From: Candidatus Staskawiczbacteria bacterium RIFOXYB1_FULL_38_37
GTDB lineage: Bacteria > Patescibacteriota > Minisyncoccia > Minisyncoccales > Staskawiczbacteraceae
Direction of reading: 5' to 3'
DNA length: 64,000 nucleotides
NCBI GenBank assembly: GCA_001822075.1
Contig: MHPK01000007.1
Span: forward strand, 5,975 to 69,974
Part shown: piece after piece, positions 5,505 through 52,198 of the stretch
Layout: each line of letters begins with the position of its first letter
Position numbering within the stretch: position 1 is the stretch's first letter
Program-made: the position numbers and the translations under genes
The notes under the pieces: model-generated
What the model was told of the DNA's origin: nothing
Database searches by the model: none
What the model saw: only the letters and a program-made list of their open reading frames with translations

Positions 5505-5867
5505 ATGACAACAGCAGTTTTAAAGCAATTAAGGGCATATAACAAGCTTCAAGCCAAGGCAGTATCTTTTGCTATGCCAAAAATAAATTGGAAAATTTTG
5601 TCTGTATCCTTATTTTTATTATGCTTTTTGCTGCTGGTTTTTTATATTTATCAGATTATTGATTTAACAAAGATATCTTATTCTCTTAATACTTATCAAA
5701 ACAGCATTGCTAAAATTTCCAGGGAAAATAAAAATTTAGAGGTGAGCTTTGCGGAAAATAATTTTTTGGCAGAAGTTTTGCAAAAGGCGCAGGAGATCGG
5801 CTTTCAAAGAACAGCTTCAATAACTTATGTGCAAATTTTGAACAATTCTGTGGCTAAAGCAAGGTAA
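5505..5867 (+). CDS. FtsL-like cell division protein (single TM plus coiled coil)
   Basis: 120 aa with one TM helix. Its position between rsmH and ftsI matches ftsL. Sequence similarity was not assessed. Confidence 0.55.
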   Translation: MTTAVLKQLRAYNKLQAKAVSFAMPKINWKILSVSLFLLCFLLLVFYIYQIIDLTKISYSLNTYQNSIAKISRENKNLEVSFAENNFLAEVLQKAQEIGFQRTASITYVQILNNSVAKAR

Positions 5868-5874
5868 AGGCGCT

Positions 5875-7596
5875 ATGAAAATTTTTTTTAAGCACTGGCG
5901 CGTAAATTTAATCTTATTTTTAATTGTTATTGCAGGGGCAGCTATTATTGGCCGCCTGTTTTTTCTGCAAGTTTTAAACCATAAGCTTTATCAGGCTCAA
6001 GCTTTAGGCCAGCAGGCGGGCTTTAACAAAGTTGTGGGCTCAAGGGGGCAGATATTGTGCCAGAACAGCCTGCAAAGCAAGGGAGAATATAATTTAGGAG
6101 AAGCAAAAAATTTAGCGACTAACAAAGAAACGTGGATAATTTTTGCAAATTCATATGATATTGAGGACAAAGAAACGTTTGTTAAAACTTTGTCTCCGGT
6201 TATTGGCCAGACAGAAGAAGAAATACTTGCAGAAATAACCAGCGATGATTATTATGCTGTGATAGAAAAAAACGTTTCTACAGACAAACTTGATAAAATA
6301 AAAGAGCTTAATTTAAAGGGGCTATACTGGCAGAACATTCCTGAAAGATTTTACCCTCAGGGCCAAATGGCTTCTCAAGTGCTCGGATTTTTGGGCGGAG
6401 AGGGGGAGGGGCAGTACGGGCTCGAGGGCTATTATGAGGATATTCTAAAAGGCAAGGAAGGCATAAAAGAGGAAAAAAGGGGATTGGATTCTATTTTTTC
6501 AAATTTTGATAATATAACCTTGGACGGCTCTGACTTATATTTGACAATAGACTGCAATATCCAGTTTCAGGCAGAAACTCTTTTGAAAGAAGAAAAGCAA
6601 AAAAACGATATAGAGTCGGGGCAGATAATTGTTATAAAACCGGATTCCGGCAGAGTTCTGGCTATGGCGAATTATCCTTCATTTAATCCCAATGAATATT
6701 ATAAAGAAGGCAATTTAGAAATTTTCCAAAATTCAGCCACTCAAAAACTTTTTGAGCCAGGTTCCATTTTAAAGCCGTTCACAATGGCAGTTGCAATAAA
6801 TGAGGGTAAAATAACCCCTGAAACCACTTATGTTGATACGGGTTCTGTAAGCTTTGGAATAAAAACAATTCATAATTTTGCAAACGAAGTTTATGGCGAA
6901 CAGACAATGGCCCAGGTTTTGGAAAAATCAATAAATACAGGAGCTGTGTTTGCCTCTCAGCAGATTTCGCACAAAACATATTTGGATTATACAGACAAAT
7001 TCGGGTTTACAAAAAAAACAGGCATTGATTTGCAGGGAGAAGTGGCTTCTCATAATGATATTTTAAGGAATGCCTCAGATATGAACTTTGCCACAGCTTC
7101 CTTTGGGCAAGGAATTGAAATGACCCCGATACAAATTACAGCCGGATTTTCAGCTATTGCTAACGGAGGCAATCTTGTGAAACCATATATTGTTGAAAAA
7201 ATAATAAACGGGAGAGACGAAGTTAGAACAGAGCCTAATCTTTCAAGCTCGATTATTTCGCAACAAACAGCTTCTTCTGTTACTTCAATGTTAATTAATG
7301 TGGTTGAGCAAGGGTTTGGCAGCGGGGCAAAGATTCCAGGATATTATATTGCCGGCAAAACCGGAACTGCCCAAGTGCCTTTAAAAAATGGAAAAGGATA
7401 TGAAGAAGATAAAACTATTCAAAGCTTTATAGGATACGCGCCGGCCTACAATCCTCAATTTTTAATTTTGATAAAATTAGACAACCCGAAAGTTCCAAAA
7501 TCCGCGCTTTCAGCGGTCCCTGTTTTTAAAAAGCTTGCCCAGTACATAATAAATTACTGGGAAATCCCGCCAGACTACGATGCTCAAGCTAAATAG
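5875..7596 (+). CDS. ftsI: class B penicillin-binding protein (FtsI/PBP3-like transpeptidase)
   Basis: 573 aa with an N-terminal TM and the motifs SILK (SxxK), SIN (SxN) and KTGT. Confidence 0.88.
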   Translation: MKIFFKHWRVNLILFLIVIAGAAIIGRLFFLQVLNHKLYQAQALGQQAGFNKVVGSRGQILCQNSLQSKGEYNLGEAKNLATNKETWIIFANSYDIEDKETFVKTLSPVIGQTEEEILAEITSDDYYAVIEKNVSTDKLDKIKELNLKGLYWQNIPERFYPQGQMASQVLGFLGGEGEGQYGLEGYYEDILKGKEGIKEEKRGLDSIFSNFDNITLDGSDLYLTIDCNIQFQAETLLKEEKQKNDIESGQIIVIKPDSGRVLAMANYPSFNPNEYYKEGNLEIFQNSATQKLFEPGSILKPFTMAVAINEGKITPETTYVDTGSVSFGIKTIHNFANEVYGEQTMAQVLEKSINTGAVFASQQISHKTYLDYTDKFGFTKKTGIDLQGEVASHNDILRNASDMNFATASFGQGIEMTPIQITAGFSAIANGGNLVKPYIVEKIINGRDEVRTEPNLSSSIISQQTASSVTSMLINVVEQGFGSGAKIPGYYIAGKTGTAQVPLKNGKGYEEDKTIQSFIGYAPAYNPQFLILIKLDNPKVPKSALSAVPVFKKLAQYIINYWEIPPDYDAQAK

Positions 7597-11091: not shown

Positions 11092-11427
11092 ATGTTAGCT
11101 ATAATAAAAACCGGGGGAAAACAATATATTGTAAAACCCGGAGACAAATTAAAAGTTGAAAAATTGGACCCCATTGGAAAGACTTCGTCTTCCAACGGGG
11201 AAAATTCAGAAATTATTTTTGAAGATATTTTGCTATTGGAAAAAAATAATAAGTTAGAGATTGGCGCGCCCTTTGTGAAAGGAGCCAAAGTTGAGGCAAA
11301 GATTTTAAGACATGGAAAAGGGGACAAAATTATTGTTTTTAAATATAAGCCAAAAAAGAGATACAGCAGAAAAATAGGCCACAGACAGCCCTATACAGAA
11401 ATTGAAATTATGGGAATTAAAAATTAA
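11092..11427 (+). CDS. rplU: 50S ribosomal protein L21
   Basis: MLAIIKTGGKQYIVKPGDKLKVEKL ... KKRYSRKIGHRQPYTEIEI. Confidence 0.95.
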   Translation: MLAIIKTGGKQYIVKPGDKLKVEKLDPIGKTSSSNGENSEIIFEDILLLEKNNKLEIGAPFVKGAKVEAKILRHGKGDKIIVFKYKPKKRYSRKIGHRQPYTEIEIMGIKN

Positions 11428-11459: not shown

Positions 11460-12197
11460 ATGCAAAAAGAAAATAAACGGCTCAACGGCGTTGGTCCGTT
11501 AGAATATGTGAGGGGGTTTACAGATTTTTTGGAATGCAAAATTGATTTGTCTAAAAGGCCGTTAATACCAAGGCCTGAAACAGAATTTTGGGTGGAAAAA
11601 GCAATTAAAGACATACTTACATACTCAAGTTTGATAGGATGTTGTTGCTGGCAGAAAAAGCATCAGATTAAAATTTTGGACATGTTTTCGGGGTCTGGGT
11701 GTATTGGGATTGCGGTTTTAAAGAACATTAAAAATTCAAGAGTTGATTTTTCAGACAGCGATAAAAATTGTTTAGAGCAGATAAAAATAAATTTAAAAAT
11801 AAATCGCATAAAATCAGGCAGATATAGGATAATAAAATCGGATATTTTAAAAGTGATAAATCCTTCGTCGCCACAATTCCTCAGGGCGAAGTACGACTTC
11901 GTTTTTGCTAATCCGCCGTATATTGCTTTAAAAAATAAAAATAAAGTCCAGAAATCGGTTTTAAAATACGAGCCGAGAAAAGCCTTATTTGGCGGCAATG
12001 ACGGGCTTTTTTATATTAAAAAGTTTTTGAAACAAGCTAAAAATTATTTAAACTCAGGCGGTATTATTTTTATGGAATTTAGTCCGGAACAGAAAAAAGA
12101 AATACAAAAACTAATTTTGAAATATAAATATAAAAATTATAAATTTTATAAAGACCAGTACAAAAAATGGAGGTGGGTATGGATTAGTAAAGAGTAA
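11460..12197 (+). CDS. prmC: release-factor glutamine N5-methyltransferase PrmC/HemK
   Basis: 245 aa with the SAM motif DMFSGSGCIG and the catalytic FANPPYI motif. Confidence 0.85.
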   Translation: MQKENKRLNGVGPLEYVRGFTDFLECKIDLSKRPLIPRPETEFWVEKAIKDILTYSSLIGCCCWQKKHQIKILDMFSGSGCIGIAVLKNIKNSRVDFSDSDKNCLEQIKINLKINRIKSGRYRIIKSDILKVINPSSPQFLRAKYDFVFANPPYIALKNKNKVQKSVLKYEPRKALFGGNDGLFYIKKFLKQAKNYLNSGGIIFMEFSPEQKKEIQKLILKYKYKNYKFYKDQYKKWRWVWISKE

Positions 12198-15256: not shown

Positions 15257-15299
15257 ACCCCGTTAGAAATTAAAAGCGGGGGATAAAAAATCAGTATTT

Positions 15300-16547
15300 A
15301 TGGCATTATTCAAGTTAGGCGGAATTTCTAACGGGGTAAAGGAATATTTTAAGATAGCCTTTAAAAGCATTGCTACAAGAAAGGTGAGGTCTTGGCTTAC
15401 AACAATAGGAATTGTAATCGGAGTATTTTTAATTGTTTCGCTTTTATCTTTGTCGCAAGGATTGAAAAACGCTGTTTTAAACCAGCTGAGCATGATTGGC
15501 AAAGACCTGATTATGATAATGCCGGGAGACATAAGCAATATAACTTCTTTGGTAACAGGAGACGAGCTTTCTGAAGAAGATTTAAAAATCATTAAACAAA
15601 CAGAAGGGGTGGCAAAAGTTGTGTCTATTGATTATACGTCTATTGTAATGCGCTATAACAATCAAAAAAAGACAGTTTTGCTGTATAGCGCGGATTGGAA
15701 AAACGCGCTTGATGTTTTTGAAAATGATGTGGGCTGGAGTTTGGCAGAAGGCAGGTGGCCTATAGCCAGAAAAAATGAAATTATTGTGGGAAGCATTGTG
15801 GCTTCTGAACTTTTTCCTTCAATAAGAATTGGAACAGAAGCTGTTATAAAGGGCAGAAAATTTACTATTGTGGGTATTTTAAACTCTGTGGGGTCTAAGC
15901 AGGATGATTCTATGGCTGGCATAGACGACACCATCTTTTCTTCTGTTACAGGAGAACGTACAGGAGCCAAGCAGGCTATGGCAAAATTAAAAGCCGGTTA
16001 TTCGCCGGATGTTGTGGCTGAAAAAATAAAAAGCAACCTTAATGAAAATAGAAAAAGGCAGATAGGCCAAAAAGAAAGCGATTCTTCTTATACGGTTTTG
16101 ACTTCAGAAAAAGTGATGAGCATTGTAAGCAATATACTGGGCGTAATACAGGCTGTAATTATTGGATTTGCATCAATTGCAATTATTGTGGGAGGAATTG
16201 GAATTATGAACACAATGTACACGTCTGTTACAGAAAGAATTAAAGAAATAGGAATTATGAAAGCGATAGGAGCTAAAAATAGAACGATAACCGCTATATT
16301 TTTGATTGAATCTGGAATTTTCGGCATGCTAGGGGGCTTGGGCGGAACGTTTTTGGGAATTATATTAGCAAAAGGCATTGAAATATATTTTCAGGTGCAT
16401 CCGCTTTTTTATCTTGAGGCTGACGTTAGCCCTCAATTGATATTATTCAGCTTGAGTTTTTCTTTTTTAGTGGGATGCGTTTCTGGTTATTTCCCGGCAA
16501 AGTCAGCTTCTAAGTTAAAGCCAGTTGACGCTTTAAGATATGAATAG
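15300..16547 (+). CDS. ABC transporter permease, MacB/FtsX family
   Basis: 415 aa with an N-terminal TM, a large periplasmic domain and a C-terminal FtsX-like 3-TM bundle. Confidence 0.85.
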   Translation: MALFKLGGISNGVKEYFKIAFKSIATRKVRSWLTTIGIVIGVFLIVSLLSLSQGLKNAVLNQLSMIGKDLIMIMPGDISNITSLVTGDELSEEDLKIIKQTEGVAKVVSIDYTSIVMRYNNQKKTVLLYSADWKNALDVFENDVGWSLAEGRWPIARKNEIIVGSIVASELFPSIRIGTEAVIKGRKFTIVGILNSVGSKQDDSMAGIDDTIFSSVTGERTGAKQAMAKLKAGYSPDVVAEKIKSNLNENRKRQIGQKESDSSYTVLTSEKVMSIVSNILGVIQAVIIGFASIAIIVGGIGIMNTMYTSVTERIKEIGIMKAIGAKNRTITAIFLIESGIFGMLGGLGGTFLGIILAKGIEIYFQVHPLFYLEADVSPQLILFSLSFSFLVGCVSGYFPAKSASKLKPVDALRYE

Positions 16548-43021: not shown

Positions 43022-44221
43022 CTACTTTAAATCTTTAATAATTTCAAGGGCTTTTTCAAGCTGAGGGTCTTTATTTGATTCTGTGTCATGGTCCGATAGC
43101 TCAACCTTAATGTCTGGCTCCAATCCCACCTCAGAAATCGAATCTCCATTCGGGGTAAGCCACTTAGATATGGTTATTTTAAGAAACGACCCTCCGCGCA
43201 AATTAACAACTTCCTGGACCGATCCTTTTCCAAATGATTTTTCTCCTACAAGCATTACGTCCCTGTTATCTCTTAGGGCTCCTGCTAAAATTTCAGAGGC
43301 CGAAGCAGAGCCCTGGTTTATCAAAACAACCACAGGATAATTTGCGAATTCTCCGTTTCCCTCGCTTTTATAAATTTGCTGCTGCTCGCTGCCGCCAAAA
43401 CTTTCTATTGTGACAACTTGCCCATTTTTTAAAAAGTATCCTGCAATTTCTTGCGAAACCTCAAGGTATCCTCCGGGGTTATTTCTCAAGTCTAATATAA
43501 TTTTTTTAGCTGGGCTTTGCAATATCTCATAAGCCTCTCTTTTGAAATCTCCAGAAAGCGCTTCGTCAAACTGGAAAATTTGCACATAGGCTATGTCGTT
43601 ATCTTTCAAAGACCATTTTGTTGGCGTAATTTTTATCGTGCCTCTGGTTATTCTTATATCTTTTGAGCTAGTCCAGCCATCTCTGTAAATTGTTAAAACA
43701 ACATCTGTGCCCTCGGGGCCTCTTATTAAATTAACTGCTTCTTCAATTGTAATATTTGATGCGTCCTGGCCGTTTATTTCTAAAATAATGTCGCCGGCTT
43801 TTAACCCGGCTGACTGGGCGGGAGTGCCCTCTAATGGAGCTATTATTGTAAGCTGGTCTTTTCTAATGCCTAATTCAGCTCCGATTCCCTCAAAAGACCC
43901 TGAAAGGCTTTGCATAAAAGTTTCTGCCTCTTCGGGAGTAAAGAATGAAGTATACGGGTCTCCCAGCGACTCTGCCATTCCTTTTATGGCCCCGTAAATT
44001 ATTTTTTGGTCATCTATTTTTGACGGGTCTATAAAATTTTCACGGAGCTTATTATAAGCATCCCAAAAAAGGGAAAAATTTATGTTTTCCGGCTGGGGCA
44101 CGCAGTAAGCCACTTTTTCAACGCCGACCCAAATGCCCAAATAAAAAACAGCGATAAAACATGCCACCAGAACAACGACATAAATTATTTTTTTATCAAA
44201 ATTAAAATTAAAATCGAACAT
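43022..44221 (-). CDS. carboxyl-terminal processing protease (S41, CtpA-like)
   Basis: 399 aa with an N-terminal TM, a PDZ domain (GLKAGDIILEINGQ) and GSASASEILAGAL. Confidence 0.9.
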   Translation of the reverse strand: MFDFNFNFDKKIIYVVVLVACFIAVFYLGIWVGVEKVAYCVPQPENINFSLFWDAYNKLRENFIDPSKIDDQKIIYGAIKGMAESLGDPYTSFFTPEEAETFMQSLSGSFEGIGAELGIRKDQLTIIAPLEGTPAQSAGLKAGDIILEINGQDASNITIEEAVNLIRGPEGTDVVLTIYRDGWTSSKDIRITRGTIKITPTKWSLKDNDIAYVQIFQFDEALSGDFKREAYEILQSPAKKIILDLRNNPGGYLEVSQEIAGYFLKNGQVVTIESFGGSEQQQIYKSEGNGEFANYPVVVLINQGSASASEILAGALRDNRDVMLVGEKSFGKGSVQEVVNLRGGSFLKITISKWLTPNGDSISEVGLEPDIKVELSDHDTESNKDPQLEKALEIIKDLK

Positions 44222-44297
44222 GAGATTATTTATTGTATTTAGTCTTTATACCAAAAAACAATTTACAAAGCAACATTACGCTCAAGGCAATGAAACA

Positions 44298-44323
44298 GGG
44301 CGACTAAACAGAGTTAGTCGCCC
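44298..44323. terminator. 10-bp perfect hairpin gggcgactaa/ttagtcgccc closing the GC-rich island
   Basis: Perfect arms with a 6-nt loop; only a weak T-run on either strand. Confidence 0.45.
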
Positions 44324-44617
44324 TTCTTTATGCTTGCCCTAACAAGGTTGTACCTTGAGGCCATGCCCGTAAAAGGGCATACAGAGGAGAAAAGAGAACG
44401 AGCATGTAGCTCTCAGATGCTGGCAGGGTTCTCAAGTCTGCTAGCAGAAACGAAGACTCACGGTCAAGAAGATAGGGCCTCCTTTCAGCAAGAACAGAGA
44501 AGATGAGAAGTAGGCTGAAAAAGGGCCGAGCTATTTTATGCGCAGCTTTTTTAAAGCAACACATTCCATGCTGCGCATACTCTCCGTAGAGAGTTTTTTT
44601 GGCGCTGCCATAGCGCC
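44324..44617 (-). other. GC-rich, hairpin-dense, apparently noncoding segment of about 300 nt
   Basis: Stems: tatgcgcagc/gctgcgcata (10 bp), gctggcag/ctgctagc, atgccc/gggcat, ggcgct/agcgcc, caaggt/accttg. The only ORF here (102 aa) has no RBS and an implausible sequence. Confidence 0.35.
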
Positions 44618-44803
44618 CTAGCCAACAGCTTGGCAAAACCTCCCGGAGGTAAATTCCCAGCTCGTAAGCTGGGGCTTATCCAGATTGACGGCAGCATCCC
44701 CATGTGTCTGAAACGTTTTTTTGCCAGCAAAATGTTTTGCTGGTTTAATCGCCATGATAAGAGCTGCAGCCAAAGCTACGATGAATCCGATCGCATATAA
44801 CAT
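44618..44803 (-). CDS. small ORF, 61 aa, N-terminal hydrophobic helix (MLYAIGFIVALAAALIMAI...)
   Basis: ggggagaaaccaaaATG RBS-like context and a near-consensus promoter upstream. No family recognised. Confidence 0.3.
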   Translation of the reverse strand: MLYAIGFIVALAAALIMAIKPAKHFAGKKTFQTHGDAAVNLDKPQLTSWEFTSGRFCQAVG

Positions 44804-44847
44804 TTTGGTTTCTCCCCAAATTGTGATAGTAAGAGCAGATTTATATA

Positions 44848-44875
44848 ATTATAGTCAAACAAAAAGGCTTGTCAA
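44848..44875 (-). promoter_or_regulatory. promoter TTGACA-16-TATAAT
   Basis: Minus strand reads tttgacaagcctttttgtttgactataatt. Confidence 0.6.
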
Positions 44876-44910
44876 ACAAAACCCTGTGGAAAACAAAGTG
44901 TTGCGAAATG

Positions 44911-44981
44911 TGGACCCACCGGGAATTGAACCCGGCCCTCTTCCATGCCATGGAAGCGTAATGCCAATTTACTATGGGCCC
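44911..44981 (-). tRNA. tRNA-Ala (anticodon GGC)
   Basis: GGGCCCAUAGUAAAUUGGCAUUACGCUUCCAUGGCAUGGAAGAGGGCCGGGUUCAAUUCCCGGUGGGUCCA, with G3:U70, A73 and loop AUGGCAU. Confidence 0.88.
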
Positions 44982-45283
44982 CTCACCTAGAAACTTATTT
45001 TAGGCTGTTTTTGATTCTTCTTTTTAGTTGCGAATATGCTTGGGCAAATCTTTTTAGATTATTCTCTCTGAATTTTGCATCTGCTATGCTTTTGTATGAT
45101 TCATAATATACTAATTCATATGGATATTTATTTTTTGTGTACTTACTCTTGCCAGTATTGTGTTCTTTCATTCTTCTGATTAAATTATCTGTATACCCAA
45201 TATATACGCTATTATCTTTTTTACTTTTTATTACATAAACATAGAACATAATATAAATTTATAGGTGAGGGGCTATGGGCCCC
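44972..45283 (-). mobile_element. GIY-YIG cassette bounded by 12-bp inverted repeats and an 11-bp direct repeat of the tRNA-Ala 5' end
   Basis: Inverted repeat gcccctcaccta (44978-44989) / taggtgaggggc (45262-45273). Direct repeat ctatgggcccc at 44972-44982 and 45273-45283. Confidence 0.55.
44995..45249 (-). CDS. GIY-YIG nuclease domain protein (stand-alone URI-type)
   Basis: 84 aa: MFYVYVIKSKKDNSVYIGYTDNLIRRMKEHNTGK...YYESY...A..RE..LK. Confidence 0.8.
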   Translation of the reverse strand: MFYVYVIKSKKDNSVYIGYTDNLIRRMKEHNTGKSKYTKNKYPYELVYYESYKSIADAKFRENNLKRFAQAYSQLKRRIKNSLK

Positions 45284-45339
45284 AATATATTTATAATACT
45301 TGTTTTTTGAAAAATTTCAATGAAATTGAAAAAATATTA

Positions 45340-45455
45340 AACCCCGTCACCAATTTCGGCGATGTTTGCTAAAACTTATAGAGAGTTTGTCGGGCGAAGC
45401 GCCTTCGGCTGTCTTTATGCCAAATACTTTATTGTGGTCAAATTGGTGAGGGGTT
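45340..45455. mobile_element. 116-nt miniature element / long hairpin with the same termini as the GIY-YIG cassette
   Basis: aaccccgtcaccaattt (45340-45356) pairs with aaattggtgaggggtt (45440-45455). The interior carries a gcgaag-cgc-cttcgg GC hairpin. Confidence 0.5.
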
Positions 45456-45552
45456 ATTTTGGCTTTTATTTATTTGGAAATGTAGCCAAAATAAAAAGCC
45501 AGAGTGGGGTCAGCACAATGGCTCATCGGCGAAAAGTTATTCTTTCTCTTCC

Positions 45553-45660
45553 TCAGTTTGGGAAAAGAAATGTGAGGATGGCCATCAGGCCGCAGTAAAT
45601 GGCAAAAAGCCATCCTGCAGTCATGAGAAAACCCTTCACCGCTGTTTTGATGCTTTTCAT
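45553..45660 (-). CDS. 35-aa hydrophobic peptide (MKSIKTAVKGFLMTAGWLFAIYCGLMAILTFLFPN)
   Basis: GGAG lies 7 nt upstream of the ATG at 45660 and a consensus promoter lies upstream. The ORF is below the track cutoff. Confidence 0.35.
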   Translation of the reverse strand: MKSIKTAVKGFLMTAGWLFAIYCGLMAILTFLFPN

Positions 45661-45734
45661 CTTGCATCTCCAATCCTAAAAAAGAGCTCCGCAAATCCTG
45701 CGGCAGGAACTAAGGCAAAATGCCCTAATATTTT

Positions 45735-45763
45735 ATTATAGCATACCCAAACCCATAAGTCAA
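45735..45763 (-). promoter_or_regulatory. consensus promoter TTGACT-17-TATAAT
   Basis: Minus strand reads atttgacttatgggtttgggtatgctataataaa. Confidence 0.65.
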
Positions 45764-45768
45764 ATATT

Positions 45769-46869
45769 TTAGCGCTTAATAAAACTCTTCAGTTTTTCTA
45801 TGGTTTGGTCGTAGGTTGGGCGGTCAACAGGGTATGGCGTTGCGTCTTTTCCTCCGTGGGCAAAAGAATATCTTGCCGGGTCTTCATATGAGGGCTTGGC
45901 TCCGTAAATAACTTCTGCCACCAATGCCAAAGCCCTAATTGTTTTCGGTCCCACTCCTTGTGTTGCCAGAAGCTTTTCATAGTTTTCTGGCTTTTGGTCG
46001 CACAATCGCCATAAAATTTTTTCTAAGTATTTGCTTTTACTAAAATCTTCTGTCACGACAGGGTGCCATTTAAATTCTTTAGTTTCTAAATTTAATAAAG
46101 TTAATTGTTCTTTTCCTTTTTGCAGCTTTATAGTTTGCGATAACGGCGTGCAGTATTTTCTCAAAAACGTAATATCTTTCATTAAAGTATTAAAGCTTTG
46201 CGAAACCAATCCTGTGCTCAATCCCCTGTTTTGTTTGCTTTTATCTGCTGTCATATTCAAAACACTTTTTATTTTAACGGCGCTTTCAATACCGGAATGC
46301 GGTTCTTCAATTAAATCTTTTATATTTTCCGAAAACCAATGGTAGCGCCTGGCGCTTTGCGCGCTTACATTCATCCCTTGTTGCACAACTGTCCATGCGC
46401 CGTTTTTCGTAAAGAAAAAACTGTGGTGGTAAATTTGAAATCCATCTTGCACTAATGAGCTGTCTACTTTGGTAGCCATTTTTGAGTTATATACTAAAGC
46501 ATTGGCGCTTTTTTCCGCCAAGTTTATTTTTTCAGACCAGTTTAAAATTTCGTCCGGAGTTTTGCGCGAAGTTTTTCCTTTACCTCCGCAAATAAAAATT
46601 CCTAAATCTTTTTCAGACCCGCGTATCGCTTCTTTTAAAGCCGCTGTTAAAATTGTTGTTAAGCCGGAAGCATTCCAATCAAAAGCCAAAACAGTTCCCA
46701 GCGACTGAAACCACACAGGGTCTGAAATTCTTTTTACAAATTCGTCCGGGCCTTCTTCTGCCACAATGGCGTAAATCATTCTTTTAGACAACAAAACCAT
46801 TCTGTCAAAAAGCCACTTCGGGCACTTTCCATAATCTAAACCAAAAGTTGCAATACCCTTTGATATCAT
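45769..46869 (-). CDS. DUF763-family protein
   Basis: 366 aa. The N-terminus GLDYGKCPKWLFDRMVLLSKRMIYAIV matches my recollection of the DUF763 signature. Function unknown. Confidence 0.65.
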   Translation of the reverse strand: MISKGIATFGLDYGKCPKWLFDRMVLLSKRMIYAIVAEEGPDEFVKRISDPVWFQSLGTVLAFDWNASGLTTILTAALKEAIRGSEKDLGIFICGGKGKTSRKTPDEILNWSEKINLAEKSANALVYNSKMATKVDSSLVQDGFQIYHHSFFFTKNGAWTVVQQGMNVSAQSARRYHWFSENIKDLIEEPHSGIESAVKIKSVLNMTADKSKQNRGLSTGLVSQSFNTLMKDITFLRKYCTPLSQTIKLQKGKEQLTLLNLETKEFKWHPVVTEDFSKSKYLEKILWRLCDQKPENYEKLLATQGVGPKTIRALALVAEVIYGAKPSYEDPARYSFAHGGKDATPYPVDRPTYDQTIEKLKSFIKR

Positions 46870-51159: not shown

Positions 51160-51669
51160 TTACTGGCAATGTTGCTCTGTGACTTTTACTTTAGCAGGGG
51201 TAATAACCTTGCCATGCATTGTGTACCCGCGCTGGGTTTCCTCTGCAACAATGCCGTCTTCACCCTCATTTGAGGCAGGAACCCTGCCTACAGCTTCCAT
51301 TGTGTTTGGGTCAAACTGTTTTCCTAAAACCTCAATATGCTCAACTCCTTCCTTTTTTAATAAATCTTCCATTTGCTTTTTAATTTGCAAAAGCCCCTCG
51401 TCTTCAATATGCTTTTCTGCCAAACAAAAATTATCCAAAATCGGCAAAATTTTTAAAATTAATTCTTCGTTTGCATATTTTATAATTATTCCAATTCTTT
51501 CCATTTCTTCTTTTTTGTGGTTTAAAAAATCAGCCCGCTCCCTTTTCCAGCCATTCAAATACTCCTCGCACTTTGTTTTGCACTCTTCCAGTTTATCTAT
51601 ATTCTCGTCCTTTGCCTCGCCGAAGCCTTCGGCGGAGGCGGGTTTTTTTATATTTTTTTCTTCTGCCAT
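51160..51669 (-). CDS. grpE: nucleotide exchange factor GrpE
   Basis: 169 aa with a coiled coil plus beta domain (LRERADFLNHKKE..., VLGKQFDPNTMEAV). The N-terminus contains the repeat-encoded PASAEGFGEAK. Confidence 0.9.
   Translation of the reverse strand: MAEEKNIKKPASAEGFGEAKDENIDKLEECKTKCEEYLNGWKRERADFLNHKKEEMERIGIIIKYANEELILKILPILDNFCLAEKHIEDEGLLQIKKQMEDLLKKEGVEHIEVLGKQFDPNTMEAVGRVPASNEGEDGIVAEETQRGYTMHGKVITPAKVKVTEQHCQ
51608..51643. repeat. 36-nt GC-rich palindromic repeat, copy in grpE
   Basis: tcctttgcctcgccgaagccttcggcggaggcgggt, identical to 51918-51953. Confidence 0.95.
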
Positions 51670-51670
51670 G

Positions 51671-52198
51671 TTAAAAATTTTCCAATTCTTTAATTATTTT
51701 ATTTATAATATCTATGTTTTTATTGTGAGCTGTTTTTGACGGGCCCAATATCTCCAAAATTTCAAATAAATTATCATTGTTTTGTATTCTTGTATAATTT
51801 AACGTTGTTGAGACCTCTGACAATGACTTCATTAACTCCTCTGCCAGTTTCATTTCCTCTTCTATCTGCTGGTGGGCTGTTTTGATTTGTCGGGCGATAA
51901 AATCTGAGAAAGCATCTTCCTTTGCCTCGCCGAAGCCTTCGGCGGAGGCGGGTCGTTCTGCAGAAATTTTTTCTGCAAAATATCTGTATGCTTTTTGTGT
52001 TGGCACTCTACCTGCCGATGTGTGGGGTTGTGTAATATATCCTGCTTCTGTTAATTCTTGCAAATCATTTCTTATTGTCGCTCCGCAAACATCCAAATCT
52101 GTAATTTTTTTTAATGCTAAAGAACTAACAGGTTCGGCTGTGCTTATATATTCTCTAACCAGAAAATTTAATAATTTTTCCTGCCTTTTTGTTATCAT
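51671..52198 (-). CDS. hrcA: heat-inducible repressor HrcA, short form (175 aa)
   Basis: The N-terminal wHTH (RQEKLLNFLVREYISTAEPVSSLAL...GATIRNDLQELTEAGYITQPHTSAGRVPT) matches HrcA. It is roughly half the usual length and contains the repeat-encoded PASAEGFGEAK. Confidence 0.8.
   Translation of the reverse strand: MITKRQEKLLNFLVREYISTAEPVSSLALKKITDLDVCGATIRNDLQELTEAGYITQPHTSAGRVPTQKAYRYFAEKISAERPASAEGFGEAKEDAFSDFIARQIKTAHQQIEEEMKLAEELMKSLSEVSTTLNYTRIQNNDNLFEILEILGPSKTAHNKNIDIINKIIKELENF
51918..51953. repeat. 36-nt GC-rich palindromic repeat, copy in hrcA
   Basis: Identical to 51608-51643 and read in the same frame. Confidence 0.95.

Follow-up and report, generated by a model that had tools for sequence, protein, structure and literature searches.

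The focal locus

The 64,000-nt stretch of DNA analysed here, hereafter the window (positions 5,975 to 69,974 of contig MHPK01000007.1 of Candidatus Staskawiczbacteria bacterium RIFOXYB1_FULL_38_37), contains at 45340-45455 an inverted repeat that is the main long-range stem of a structured palindromic element of ~160 nt, designated type A and belonging to a family dispersed among Patescibacteria. On the minus strand the element is preceded by grpE, dnaK, dnaJ, tRNA-Lys, the DUF763 gene (46869..45769) and an open reading frame (ORF) for a membrane-like peptide of 35 aa (45660..45553) with its terminator; it is followed by a TTGAAA/TATTAT promoter, the first bases of tRNA-Ala, a GIY-YIG cassette (ORF 45249..44995), tRNA-Ala(GGC) (44981..44910) and, beyond ~650 nt of non-coding DNA with GC hairpins, by ctpA, rplI and pyrG. 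The parts of the element and its borders are listed below, P1 being its external 5′ hairpin and P2 its long-range stem; loci other than the window are designated by L numbers throughout.

45340-45356, plus-strand letters: left arm of the inverted repeat, aaccccgtcaccaattt
45440-45455, plus-strand letters: right arm of the inverted repeat, aaattggtgaggggtt
45339..45497, minus strand: whole type A palindromic element (P1, P2 and core), from the covariance model and the 172-nt fold
45454..45494, minus strand: hairpin P1, arms 45484-45494 and 45454-45464 (TTATTTTGGCT / AGCCAAAATAA), abutting the CCCC foot of P2
45440..45455, minus strand: 5′ arm of P2, AACCCCTCACCAATTT (the right arm), pairing with 45340-45356
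45393..45413, minus strand: GC-rich core, GACAGCCGAAGGCGCTTCGCC, folding as a small hairpin for which other pairings are available
45340..45356, minus strand: 3′ arm of P2, AAATTGGTGACGGGGTT, with a bulged C (the left arm)
45495..45530, minus strand: U-tract and hairpin resembling an intrinsic terminator, belonging to the 35-aa ORF upstream
45293..45320, minus strand: putative tRNA-Ala promoter TTGAAA-16-TATTAT, directly downstream of the element, read by eye

An earlier reading of the letters alone (the sequence-only reading) had described a 116-nt unit closed by a 16-bp stem with one bulge. The stem is confirmed, with 16 pairs, one extra-helical base (G on the plus strand, C on the minus strand) and a loop of 83 nt, and the interior hairpin gcgaag-cgc-cttcgg is indeed found at 45395-45409; the inverted repeat was therefore correctly recognised, but the size was not, the conserved unit being longer (~160 nt, 45339-45497). 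A 126-nt stretch folds with -42.6 kcal/mol (z = -4.0) on the plus strand and -33.8 kcal/mol (z = -3.6) on the minus strand, and a 172-nt stretch including the extra 5′ hairpin reaches -46.4 kcal/mol (z = -5.1), a value not attained by any of 200 shuffled sequences. The minimum free energy fold of the 172 nt contains a shifted alternative to P1 in the window copy, and the U-tract of the 35-aa ORF terminator is common to the 5′ side of P1. A covariance model built on 26 homologues recognises 45339-45497 with 71.6 bits (E=1.3e-14) on the minus strand and 45.7 bits on the plus strand. No conserved ORF lies in the focal element, orf74 and orf78 being absent in relatives.

Conservation and covariation of the type A family

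BLAST of related loci yielded a second type A copy, located upstream of hrcA in another species (L011), in which both arms and a 21-nt core are common with the window, the core being identical and the remainder diverged. A 17-nt core used alone as query matched unrelated high-GC coding DNA, and an arm-plus-core pattern, ACCAATTT-N15-45-CCGAAGGCGCTTCG, was adopted for the metagenome scan. It returned 39 loci; once the window and L011 are added, the set comprises 35 different sequences of full length on Patescibacteria contigs in ~25 gene contexts, bearing out the suggestion of a dispersed family. Eight bases in the 5′ arm were fixed by the pattern, as were 14 in the core, which is present in 39/39 metagenome loci; independent of the pattern are P1, the CCCC/GGGG foot and the pairing ability of the 3′ arm.

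The architecture of the family consists of a T-run, P1, P2 directly abutting P1, the core and the 3′ arm. In most members P1 is of a GC-rich main type, GAGCGGCGG-(15-nt loop AATATAATTTCCTTG)-CCGCCGCGA, while the window represents a minority subtype with an AU-rich P1, to which L099, L102, L105 and L116 also belong. Covariation statistics and the covariance model were based on 26 main-type sequences, and they reveal a clear structural constraint: 97.0% of cells are paired as compared with 38.5-52.5% when the partners are slid, and none of 500 shuffles reaches the observed covariation. In P1, changes on both sides (GC to AU, CG or UA) occur in six of the seven pairs. P2, a stem of 16-17 bp, is 97.6% paired and displays one compensatory pair (CG to UA); its irregularity is fixed in position just after the CCCC/GGGG foot, as UU/U in the main type and U/AC in the window. 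That P2 is a true helix follows from a paralogue, the second copy of L103, which keeps the core (with a one-base insertion) and has the whole of P2 replaced by the perfectly complementary CCCCGTTAGAAGTT/AACTTCTAACGGGG, both arms having thus been swapped with complementarity kept.

Three features point to the strand under constraint: a U.G pair of P2 kept in 25/26 sequences, a tandem G.A beside P1 as read from the aligned sequences, and the asymmetry of the model scores, sequences outside the training set obtaining 69-118 bits forward vs 30-53 bits in reverse. The constrained strand would thus be the minus strand of the window, on which the focal element is probably functional.

The type A sequences have a median pairwise identity of 76% in the P2-to-P2 region, and no near-identical copies were seen in different contexts. 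A covariation scan for further helices inside P2 found none beyond P1, the variable regions aligning poorly, and a possible CAGCCGA/UCGGCUG pairing occurs in part of the family only. There is no conserved promoter at a fixed distance from type A on either strand; an internal candidate, TTCACC-N18-TATATT, passes in only five members. By reading, about two-thirds of the members directly follow a terminator hairpin with T-run, and a homologous upstream terminator is present in L008 without the element.

Rfam 15 gave no match to the element at the gathering score, nor at E<=10 in window positions 44200-45800 or in positions 5860-6140 of the main-type locus L107. Likenesses noticed by eye to the domain IV of signal recognition particle (SRP) RNA, 6S RNA, 5S rRNA, T-box, glycine riboswitch, hammerhead core and group II domain V were short and judged coincidental, and the topology of these families also misfits, the 5′ and 3′ ends of the element being unpaired. 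The library searched yielded no paper on miniature palindromic elements in Patescibacteria. Carriage by phages was considered and rejected, neither type A nor the GIY-YIG cassette being present in IMG/VR.

Distribution of type A and empty orthologous sites

The genes that flank type A, named from a reading of the listed translations, differ at nearly every locus (hrcA, mreB, mnmA, dnaK, rluA, L31, metK, PBP genes); the element is also found in the spacers atpG/atpA, dnaB/cysS and miaA/miaB and beside the gene of ribosomal protein L3, and over the family both orientations occur. By our own approximate count the neighbours are co-directional with it in 12 loci, both antisense in eight and convergent in six, a mixture of orientations that excludes the role of a leader or riboswitch. 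Adjacency to a tRNA gene is limited to 3-4/37 members; in L126 a tRNA 3′ end stands directly in place of P1. The L103 contig (2.6 kb) carries two divergent copies 1.2 kb apart, beside ribosomal protein genes. On the other hand, related species have positions in common, namely L119/L129/L096 (atpG/atpA spacer, element identity 84-89%), L114/L125 and L011/L118, indicating that type A copies persist through speciation.

The orthologous site could be inspected in six other Staskawiczbacteria species (L007-L010, L013, L017), whose DUF763 is 83-88% identical and in which the order DUF763...tRNA-Ala...Ctp...L9 is kept. The spacer between DUF763 and tRNA-Ala measures from 65 to 1167 nt in these relatives, as against 787 nt in the window, and in none of the six does it contain a type A element or a GIY-YIG gene, so that the presence/absence polymorphism proposed as a check does exist. 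In L008 and L009 the tRNA promoter comes directly after the small ORF and its terminator with nothing between, whereas the window has ~190 extra bases between the terminator T-run and the -35 box. Because the relatives have an empty site, and loss in all of them would be less parsimonious, the element is best regarded as an insertion in this lineage. The window TTGAAA-16-TATTAT aligns with the TTGAAA...TATAAT promoters ahead of tRNA-Ala in L008 and L009, and this alignment suggests that it is the tRNA-Ala promoter.

The surroundings of the element deserve a separate mention. The 35-aa hydrophobic ORF (MKSIKTAVKGFLMTAGWLFAIYCGLMAILTFLFPN; 45553-45760 with its upstream region) has a TTGAC.../TATAAT-type promoter and a structured leader of ~90 nt ahead of it, an arrangement found also between DUF763 and tRNA-Ala in L008 (~11940-12160) and L009 (~11100-11330); the leader region has no Rfam match, and the ORF might encode a small protein controlled through a regulatory leader. 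Downstream of tRNA-Ala, positions 44230-44900 consist of ~650 nt of GC-rich non-coding DNA with many short perfect hairpins (e.g., GGCGCTATGGCAGCGCC and GGGCGACTAACTCTGTTTAGTCGCCC), likewise without Rfam match; the GC-rich part, 44300-44640, was considered as a conserved RNA and rejected, only the Ctp leader being conserved with the relatives. The neighbourhood of tRNA-Ala has the appearance of a hot spot for insertions.

A wider group of CCCC...GGGG-footed elements

Type A forms a branch within a wider group of miniature palindromic elements with CCCC...GGGG feet. The second copy of L103 links the type A core to a second type of arm, here called type B, of which the window has an example:

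15258..15336, no strand assigned: type B element, CCCCGTTAGAAATT...AATTTCTAACGGGG, 79 nt, with TAAA direct repeats at the flanks

It lies between the stop codon of an ABC ATPase gene and a permease gene, and the listed permease ORF begins at an ATG within it, the reading frame continuing across the 3′ arm (..GGISNGVKEY..). These arms are also present in L029, L052, L067, L103, L116, L125 and L136. In L029 (6485-6531) type B is inserted in frame, in the manner of an RPE, in the N-terminus of a tRNA-dihydrouridine-synthase-like (Dus-like) ORF (...WKKLR-PVRNNLYGDKKISNGV-KKPFFAIAPMADVTD...). The 11.8 kb of L116 carry five CCCC-footed elements, three of type B, one of type A and a fifth. In L136 (2260-2470) type B arms (2309-2322 and 2408-2421), with CAA repeats at the flanks, enclose a complete tRNA-Ala(TGC); this unit sits in the apparent anticodon region of a degenerate tRNA-like sequence, itself placed after a GIY-YIG cassette, the whole being a nest of insertions and possibly a mobile tRNA gene.

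Exact 4-nt direct repeats (TAAA, TTGA, TGAA) flank 7/17 independent CCCC...GGGG elements other than type A, the control frequency being 1.4% (p=1.7e-9). Indeed, with several copies per contig, in-frame insertion, an enclosed tRNA and 4-bp duplications, the sister elements behave like the RPE and the MITEs (miniature inverted-repeat transposable elements) of bacteria. Type B arms, in the hairpin CCCCGTTAGA...TCTAACGGGG, were also found in L052 (1792-1852) and in three IMG/VR contigs with a GC of ~0.5 (L148 2297-2354, L149 4876-4943, L150 555-610), one of the contigs having a TCTG flanking repeat; as these contigs are not Patescibacteria-like, the arm type has spread well beyond the phylum. Among low-GC loci CCCC-N-CACC is the commonest GC-rich split 8-mer inverted pair, with seven occurrences vs <=4 for any other, a count that is suggestive only; over all loci, where high-GC genomes dominate, no clear excess emerged.

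The GIY-YIG cassette and its relation to the element

On the tRNA side of the element the window contains the following two features.

44979..45272, minus strand: GIY-YIG cassette, arms 44979-44997 and 45254-45272 (CCCCTCACCTA.AAA.TTA), ORF 44995-45249
44910..44981, minus strand: tRNA-Ala(GGC), target of the cassette (ARAGORN; Rfam tRNA 56.3 bits)

The cassette arms form a 19-bp inverted repeat with two mismatches and are flanked by the 7-bp direct repeat CCCATAG (ctatggg on the plus strand, at 44972-44978 and 45273-45279). Its 84-aa protein has a Pfam GIY-YIG match and is a bare catalytic domain without a recognisable DNA-binding domain. Within 44910-45283 the cassette lies inside the tRNA-Ala gene directly after G10, with the original promoter and the first ten tRNA bases on its upstream side and an entire tRNA on its downstream side, and the terminal GGG of its right arm doubles as the first bases of the tRNA; with such an arrangement transcription of the nuclease gene would start at the tRNA promoter. 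Homologues with 72-100% identity are present, with the same arms and junctions, in four further loci (L131, L133, L136 and L146), the targets being distributed as follows.

Window, L131 and L133: tRNA-Ala(GGC), 7-bp repeat CCCATAG
L146: tRNA-Val(CAC), 7-bp repeat TGATTAG
L136: tRNA-like sequence, repeat CCGTAG / CCCGTAG (6-7 bp)

The similarity of termini that had been noticed between the element and the cassette is real and not due to chance, the cassette arms CCCCTCACCYAGAAA / TTTCTRGGTGAGGGG being kept in five independent loci in the form CCCCTCACC(Y)AGAAA... / ...TTTCT(R)GGTGAGGGG. The arms of the element (CCCCTCACCAATTT) have in common with them the 9-nt foot CCCCTCACC/GGTGAGGGG and then, after a 4-nt indel, AATTT. 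The window has three exact copies of GGTGAGGGG, at both cassette ends (44979-44987 on the minus strand, 45264-45272 on the plus strand) and in the right arm of the focal element (45445-45453, plus strand); a one-mismatch copy at 45343-45351 (minus strand) is the left arm, all four lying within 475 nt. With <=1 mismatch the window contains 12 matches, against 4.6 expected and a shuffle maximum of 11. The sequence-only reading had put the two units about 55 nt apart; the start of the element lies 67 nt from where the cassette arm ends (45272) and 56 nt from where the duplicated tRNA fragment ends (45283).

Beyond the arms no sequence is common to element and cassette. The cassette arm reads CCCC, then TCACC as in the type A arm of the window, then TAGAAATT as in type B, and by this composition the arms look like a mosaic of two arm types. 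No GIY-YIG protein is encoded in the contigs examined for the other type A loci, and no type A element is found in the cassette loci L131-L147. The duplication is of 7 bp after tRNA G10 for the cassette and of 4 bp for the sister elements, while type A has none. More distant GIY-YIG ORFs (~40% identity) are found in L029 (4379-4715 and 18212-18539) and L051 (6425-6756 and 20282-20596), directly upstream of tRNA genes (Gly, Gln, Ser, Gln); at three of them (L029 18212, L051 6425 and 20282) 18-25 nt from the 5′ part of the tRNA are repeated upstream, the duplicate being in some cases split by a GC-rich hairpin. It seems general in Patescibacteria that small GIY-YIG genes are inserted into the 5′ halves of tRNAs, and since the distant cassettes of L029 and L051 target tRNA without any CCCC arms, targeting is independent of the arms, which look acquired rather than donated. 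The cassette is accordingly read as an ORF inside arms of the palindromic group and not as the parent of the 116-nt element. Nevertheless, two of the five cassette loci (the window and L136, in the latter at ~40 nt) have another CCCC-footed element within 70 nt, which may reflect an insertion hot spot at tRNA genes or a functional link.

Free-standing GIY-YIG homing endonucleases are exemplified by T4 SegB in the tRNA gene cluster (PMC2330249). They are the nearest known counterpart of the neighbouring cassette, not of the element, the likeness concerning a small GIY-YIG gene tied to tRNA genes and spreading as a cassette; the cassette differs by its position inside a tRNA gene after G10, its duplicated 5′ bases, its 19-bp inverted repeat of palindromic type and a protein lacking a recognisable DNA-binding domain.

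The core hairpin and RAYT-like genes

The sequence-only reading had also proposed a link between the core and an "ORF-invading" palindrome, GCCGAAGCCTTCGGC. The palindrome exists, but the link is weak, only GCCGAAG/CTTCG being common, and is a lead rather than evidence. A repeat centred on GCCTCGCCGAAGCCTTCGGCGGAGGC is present twice in the window (51605-51666 and 51915-51976, 82% identity), placed within the grpE and hrcA-like ORFs or at their beginning, and its 13-nt centre (CCGAAGCCTTCGG) occurs once in L122.

RAYT/IS200-like Y1 genes are found in L136 (1099-1837) and L085 (8340-9070), each with short perfect palindromes at its flanks (ATAGGAGGGTC/GACCCTCCTAT and TTTGACGAAGGTT/AACCTTCGTCAAA, respectively), the classical REP-RAYT arrangement; in L085 small GACGAAGGTT/AACCTTCGTC palindromes at the flanks of the RAYT-like gene resemble the CGAAGG core. 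A tblastn search with the L136 Y1 protein identified homologues in L053, L059, L069 and L085, and none in the window or in the type A family loci.

Likeness to known miniature elements

With MITEs type A has in common terminal inverted repeats around short non-coding DNA (16-17-nt arms around 83 nt) and a presence/absence polymorphism, six syntenic relatives being without it, whereas the target-site duplication typical of MITEs is lacking. Similar ends on an element with an ORF are seen only in the GIY-YIG cassette, whose duplication length, target and distribution differ. ERIC elements have a sequence that is conserved across species and a location that differs between species; the conserved sequence, differing location and either orientation characteristic of ERIC and RPE are found in type A (35 copies, ~25 contexts), and so are compensatory stem changes (six of seven pairs in P1, one pair in P2 and one whole-helix swap). 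The integron attC site was rejected as a model, the R'' RYYYAAC and R' GTTRRRY boxes not being recognisable in the element, which has the flanks ...ATAACCCC and GGGGTTTAAT and a variable 3′ triplet (GTT, GTA, GCT, GTC, GTG); no integrase is found among the genes neighbouring the focal element.

Bacterial stem-loop elements of ~100-200 bp, some of which are fused in frame to ORFs and some of which have orientation-dependent effects on mRNA, are on record (PMC2229807). Among these, ERIC/IRU are imperfect palindromes of ~127 bp that form a long stem-loop in intergenic or intra-operon positions, in either orientation, with orientation-dependent effects on mRNA that include exposure to RNase E (PMC2229807). 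Type A resembles them as a palindromic stem-loop in spacers, in either orientation, but is unrelated in sequence and host phylum, has an external 5′ hairpin and a GC-rich core, lacks the TA duplication and is apparently of low copy number. RPE are palindromes of 105-146 bp in small reduced genomes, located between genes, in frame in conserved protein genes and in RNA genes (PMC2229807); type B is likewise found inside a Dus-like ORF (L029) and around a tRNA (L136), while the focal copy is intergenic with stop codons, there is no sequence similarity, and the 4-bp duplications of the sister elements are uncertain for RPE. The Correia/NEMIS elements of Neisseria, 100-155 bp long, are MITEs bounded by terminal inverted repeats, which are co-transcribed with adjacent genes and whose hairpins are cut by RNase III (PMC2229807); by analogy, the 16-19-bp stems described here would be suitable substrates of this enzyme. 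The 24-bp terminal inverted repeats, TA duplication, IHF site and hundreds of near-identical copies of the Correia elements have, however, no counterpart in type A. As to REP/REPIN-RAYT systems, the likeness rests in the nature of REP (short GC-rich palindromes, hairpin doublets, vertical persistence) and in the presence of RAYT-like genes with CGAAGG-type palindromes in related Patescibacteria loci; on the other hand, the window is without a RAYT gene, the P2 arms are 83 nt apart with an AT-rich interior, and a GTAG-/CGTC-type tag is not recognisable.

Which explanation fits best

The account that we favour, and to which we give slightly more credence than not, is that a non-coding palindromic type A element of ~160 nt was inserted between the terminator of the 35-aa ORF and the promoter of tRNA-Ala, having been dispersed in trans, selected for its fold and being active in cis. 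Its copies would have been spread by an enzyme supplied in trans, other than the 84-aa GIY-YIG protein, and the lineage would later have been kept by selection for the fold of a minus-strand transcript in which P1 is stacked on P2. By analogy with ERIC and Correia, the element might act in cis on neighbouring transcripts, through insulation, processing or stability; the focal copy would separate the small-ORF unit from the tRNA-Ala/GIY-YIG unit, its P1 borrowing the U-tract of the upstream terminator. The cassette would have the foot in common with type A for the reason that its ORF is enclosed by arms from this group of elements.

Several observations weigh against this account. The invariance of the core and 5′ arm, and part of the sequence conservation of P2, are an ascertainment effect, ACCAATTT and CCGAAGGCGCTTCG having been imposed by the scan pattern. 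Type A is represented by a single copy in the 64-kb window and by one more across ~250 kb of loci from related Staskawiczbacteria, and the number per genome could be one; target-site duplications are not enriched at type A (mean longest match 5.7 vs 5.2 in the control), and the DNA examined contains no DDE or Y1 transposase with matching ends. Furthermore, hairpin covariation would fit a trans-acting RNA gene equally well, and both the RNA-level role and the strand are deduced from sequence.

The main rival is indeed an independent gene for a trans-acting small RNA, in which P1, P2 and the core would constitute a protein-binding scaffold and the changes of location would result from genome rearrangement. 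The strong covariation of P1 and the whole-helix swap of P2, the conserved core and strand asymmetry, the low copy density without target duplication, the tRNA 3′ end that replaces P1 in L126, as in tRNA-linked processed RNAs, and the orthologous positions kept in L119/L129/L096, L114/L125 and L011/L118 are all in its favour. Yet an RNA gene would hardly be expected to lack a conserved promoter at a fixed distance on either strand, to use the U-tract of an upstream terminator as part of P1 in most members, to occur antisense in the atpG/atpA, dnaB/cysS and miaA/miaB spacers and beside L3, to have two divergent copies with swapped arms 1.2 kb apart in L103, or to be bounded by arms of a style that elsewhere encloses unrelated cargo, and we consider this explanation unlikely. 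Quite unlikely, too, is the derivation put forward in the sequence-only reading, with the element as a miniature derivative of the GIY-YIG cassette, taken here to be non-autonomous and mobilised by the nuclease. The 9-nt foot and AATTT common to two units 67 nt apart, the conservation of the arms over proteins of 72-100% identity in five loci, and the CCCC-footed neighbours of two of the five cassettes keep it alive at low probability; however, P1 and the core are missing from the cassette, the other type A loci encode no GIY-YIG protein in the DNA examined and the other cassette loci hold no type A, the 7-bp repeat at tRNA position 10 contrasts with the 4 bp of the sisters and the lack of any duplication at type A, the cassettes of ~40% identity duplicate 18-25 nt and do without CCCC arms, and the 84-aa protein is a bare catalytic domain.

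A role at the level of DNA, either as a recombination or protein-binding site or in the form of single-stranded DNA hairpins for a Y1 (RAYT/IS200-like) transposase, could account for the conservation of the arm sequence and of the position of the stem irregularity. Elements of the IS200/IS605 type typically lack a target duplication, a property that type A matches, and RAYT-like Y1 genes do exist in related genomes, with L085 palindromes that resemble the core; this role is nonetheless quite unlikely, given that no Y1 gene is present in the window or near family members, that the family does not have two similar subterminal hairpins, that neither the attC R-box consensus nor dif-like spacing is seen on inspection, and that the tandem G.A, like the conserved U.G pair, is more usual in RNA. 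Largely refuted, and very improbable, is the notion of a chance hairpin or of an ordinary, possibly bidirectional, intrinsic terminator. It is true that the element lies between two transcription units and that in the window UUUAAUAUUUUUU comes after its stem on the minus strand and UUAUUUUGGCUUUU on the plus strand, but a loop of 83 nt is unusual for a terminator, the element already has a canonical terminator ahead of it, most homologues have no U-run after the stem, the conservation of a core and a second hairpin over 35 contigs is unexpected for terminators, and the syntenic relatives manage without it.

A bolder idea, in our opinion improbable, is that the CCCC-footed hairpins and the GIY-YIG cassette form one mobile system in which the 84-aa protein, as a structure-specific nuclease, would cut hairpin or cruciform ends and move hairpin-bounded cassettes. 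The range of cargo that such a system would have, i.e., nothing (type B), a structured RNA core (type A), a tRNA gene (L136) or the nuclease gene, is just as speculative. If true, this would amount to a form of DNA transposition or homing not based on DDE, HUH or serine/tyrosine enzymes.

Implications

The genomes of the Patescibacteria (Candidate Phyla Radiation), ultra-small bacteria of groundwater, are very small and usually described as repeat-poor. The type A family, not catalogued before, belongs to a known class, that of conserved miniature palindromic elements, and its motif of ~150 nt, supported by covariation, could be added to RNA and repeat catalogues. The family would help to explain unannotated intergenic DNA, odd N-terminal extensions of ORFs and disrupted or missed tRNA calls in metagenome-assembled genomes. 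Furthermore, the question of which enzyme moves RPE and ERIC is still open (PMC2229807), and the foot that type A has in common with a tRNA-targeting GIY-YIG cassette makes the question of the mover enzyme testable.

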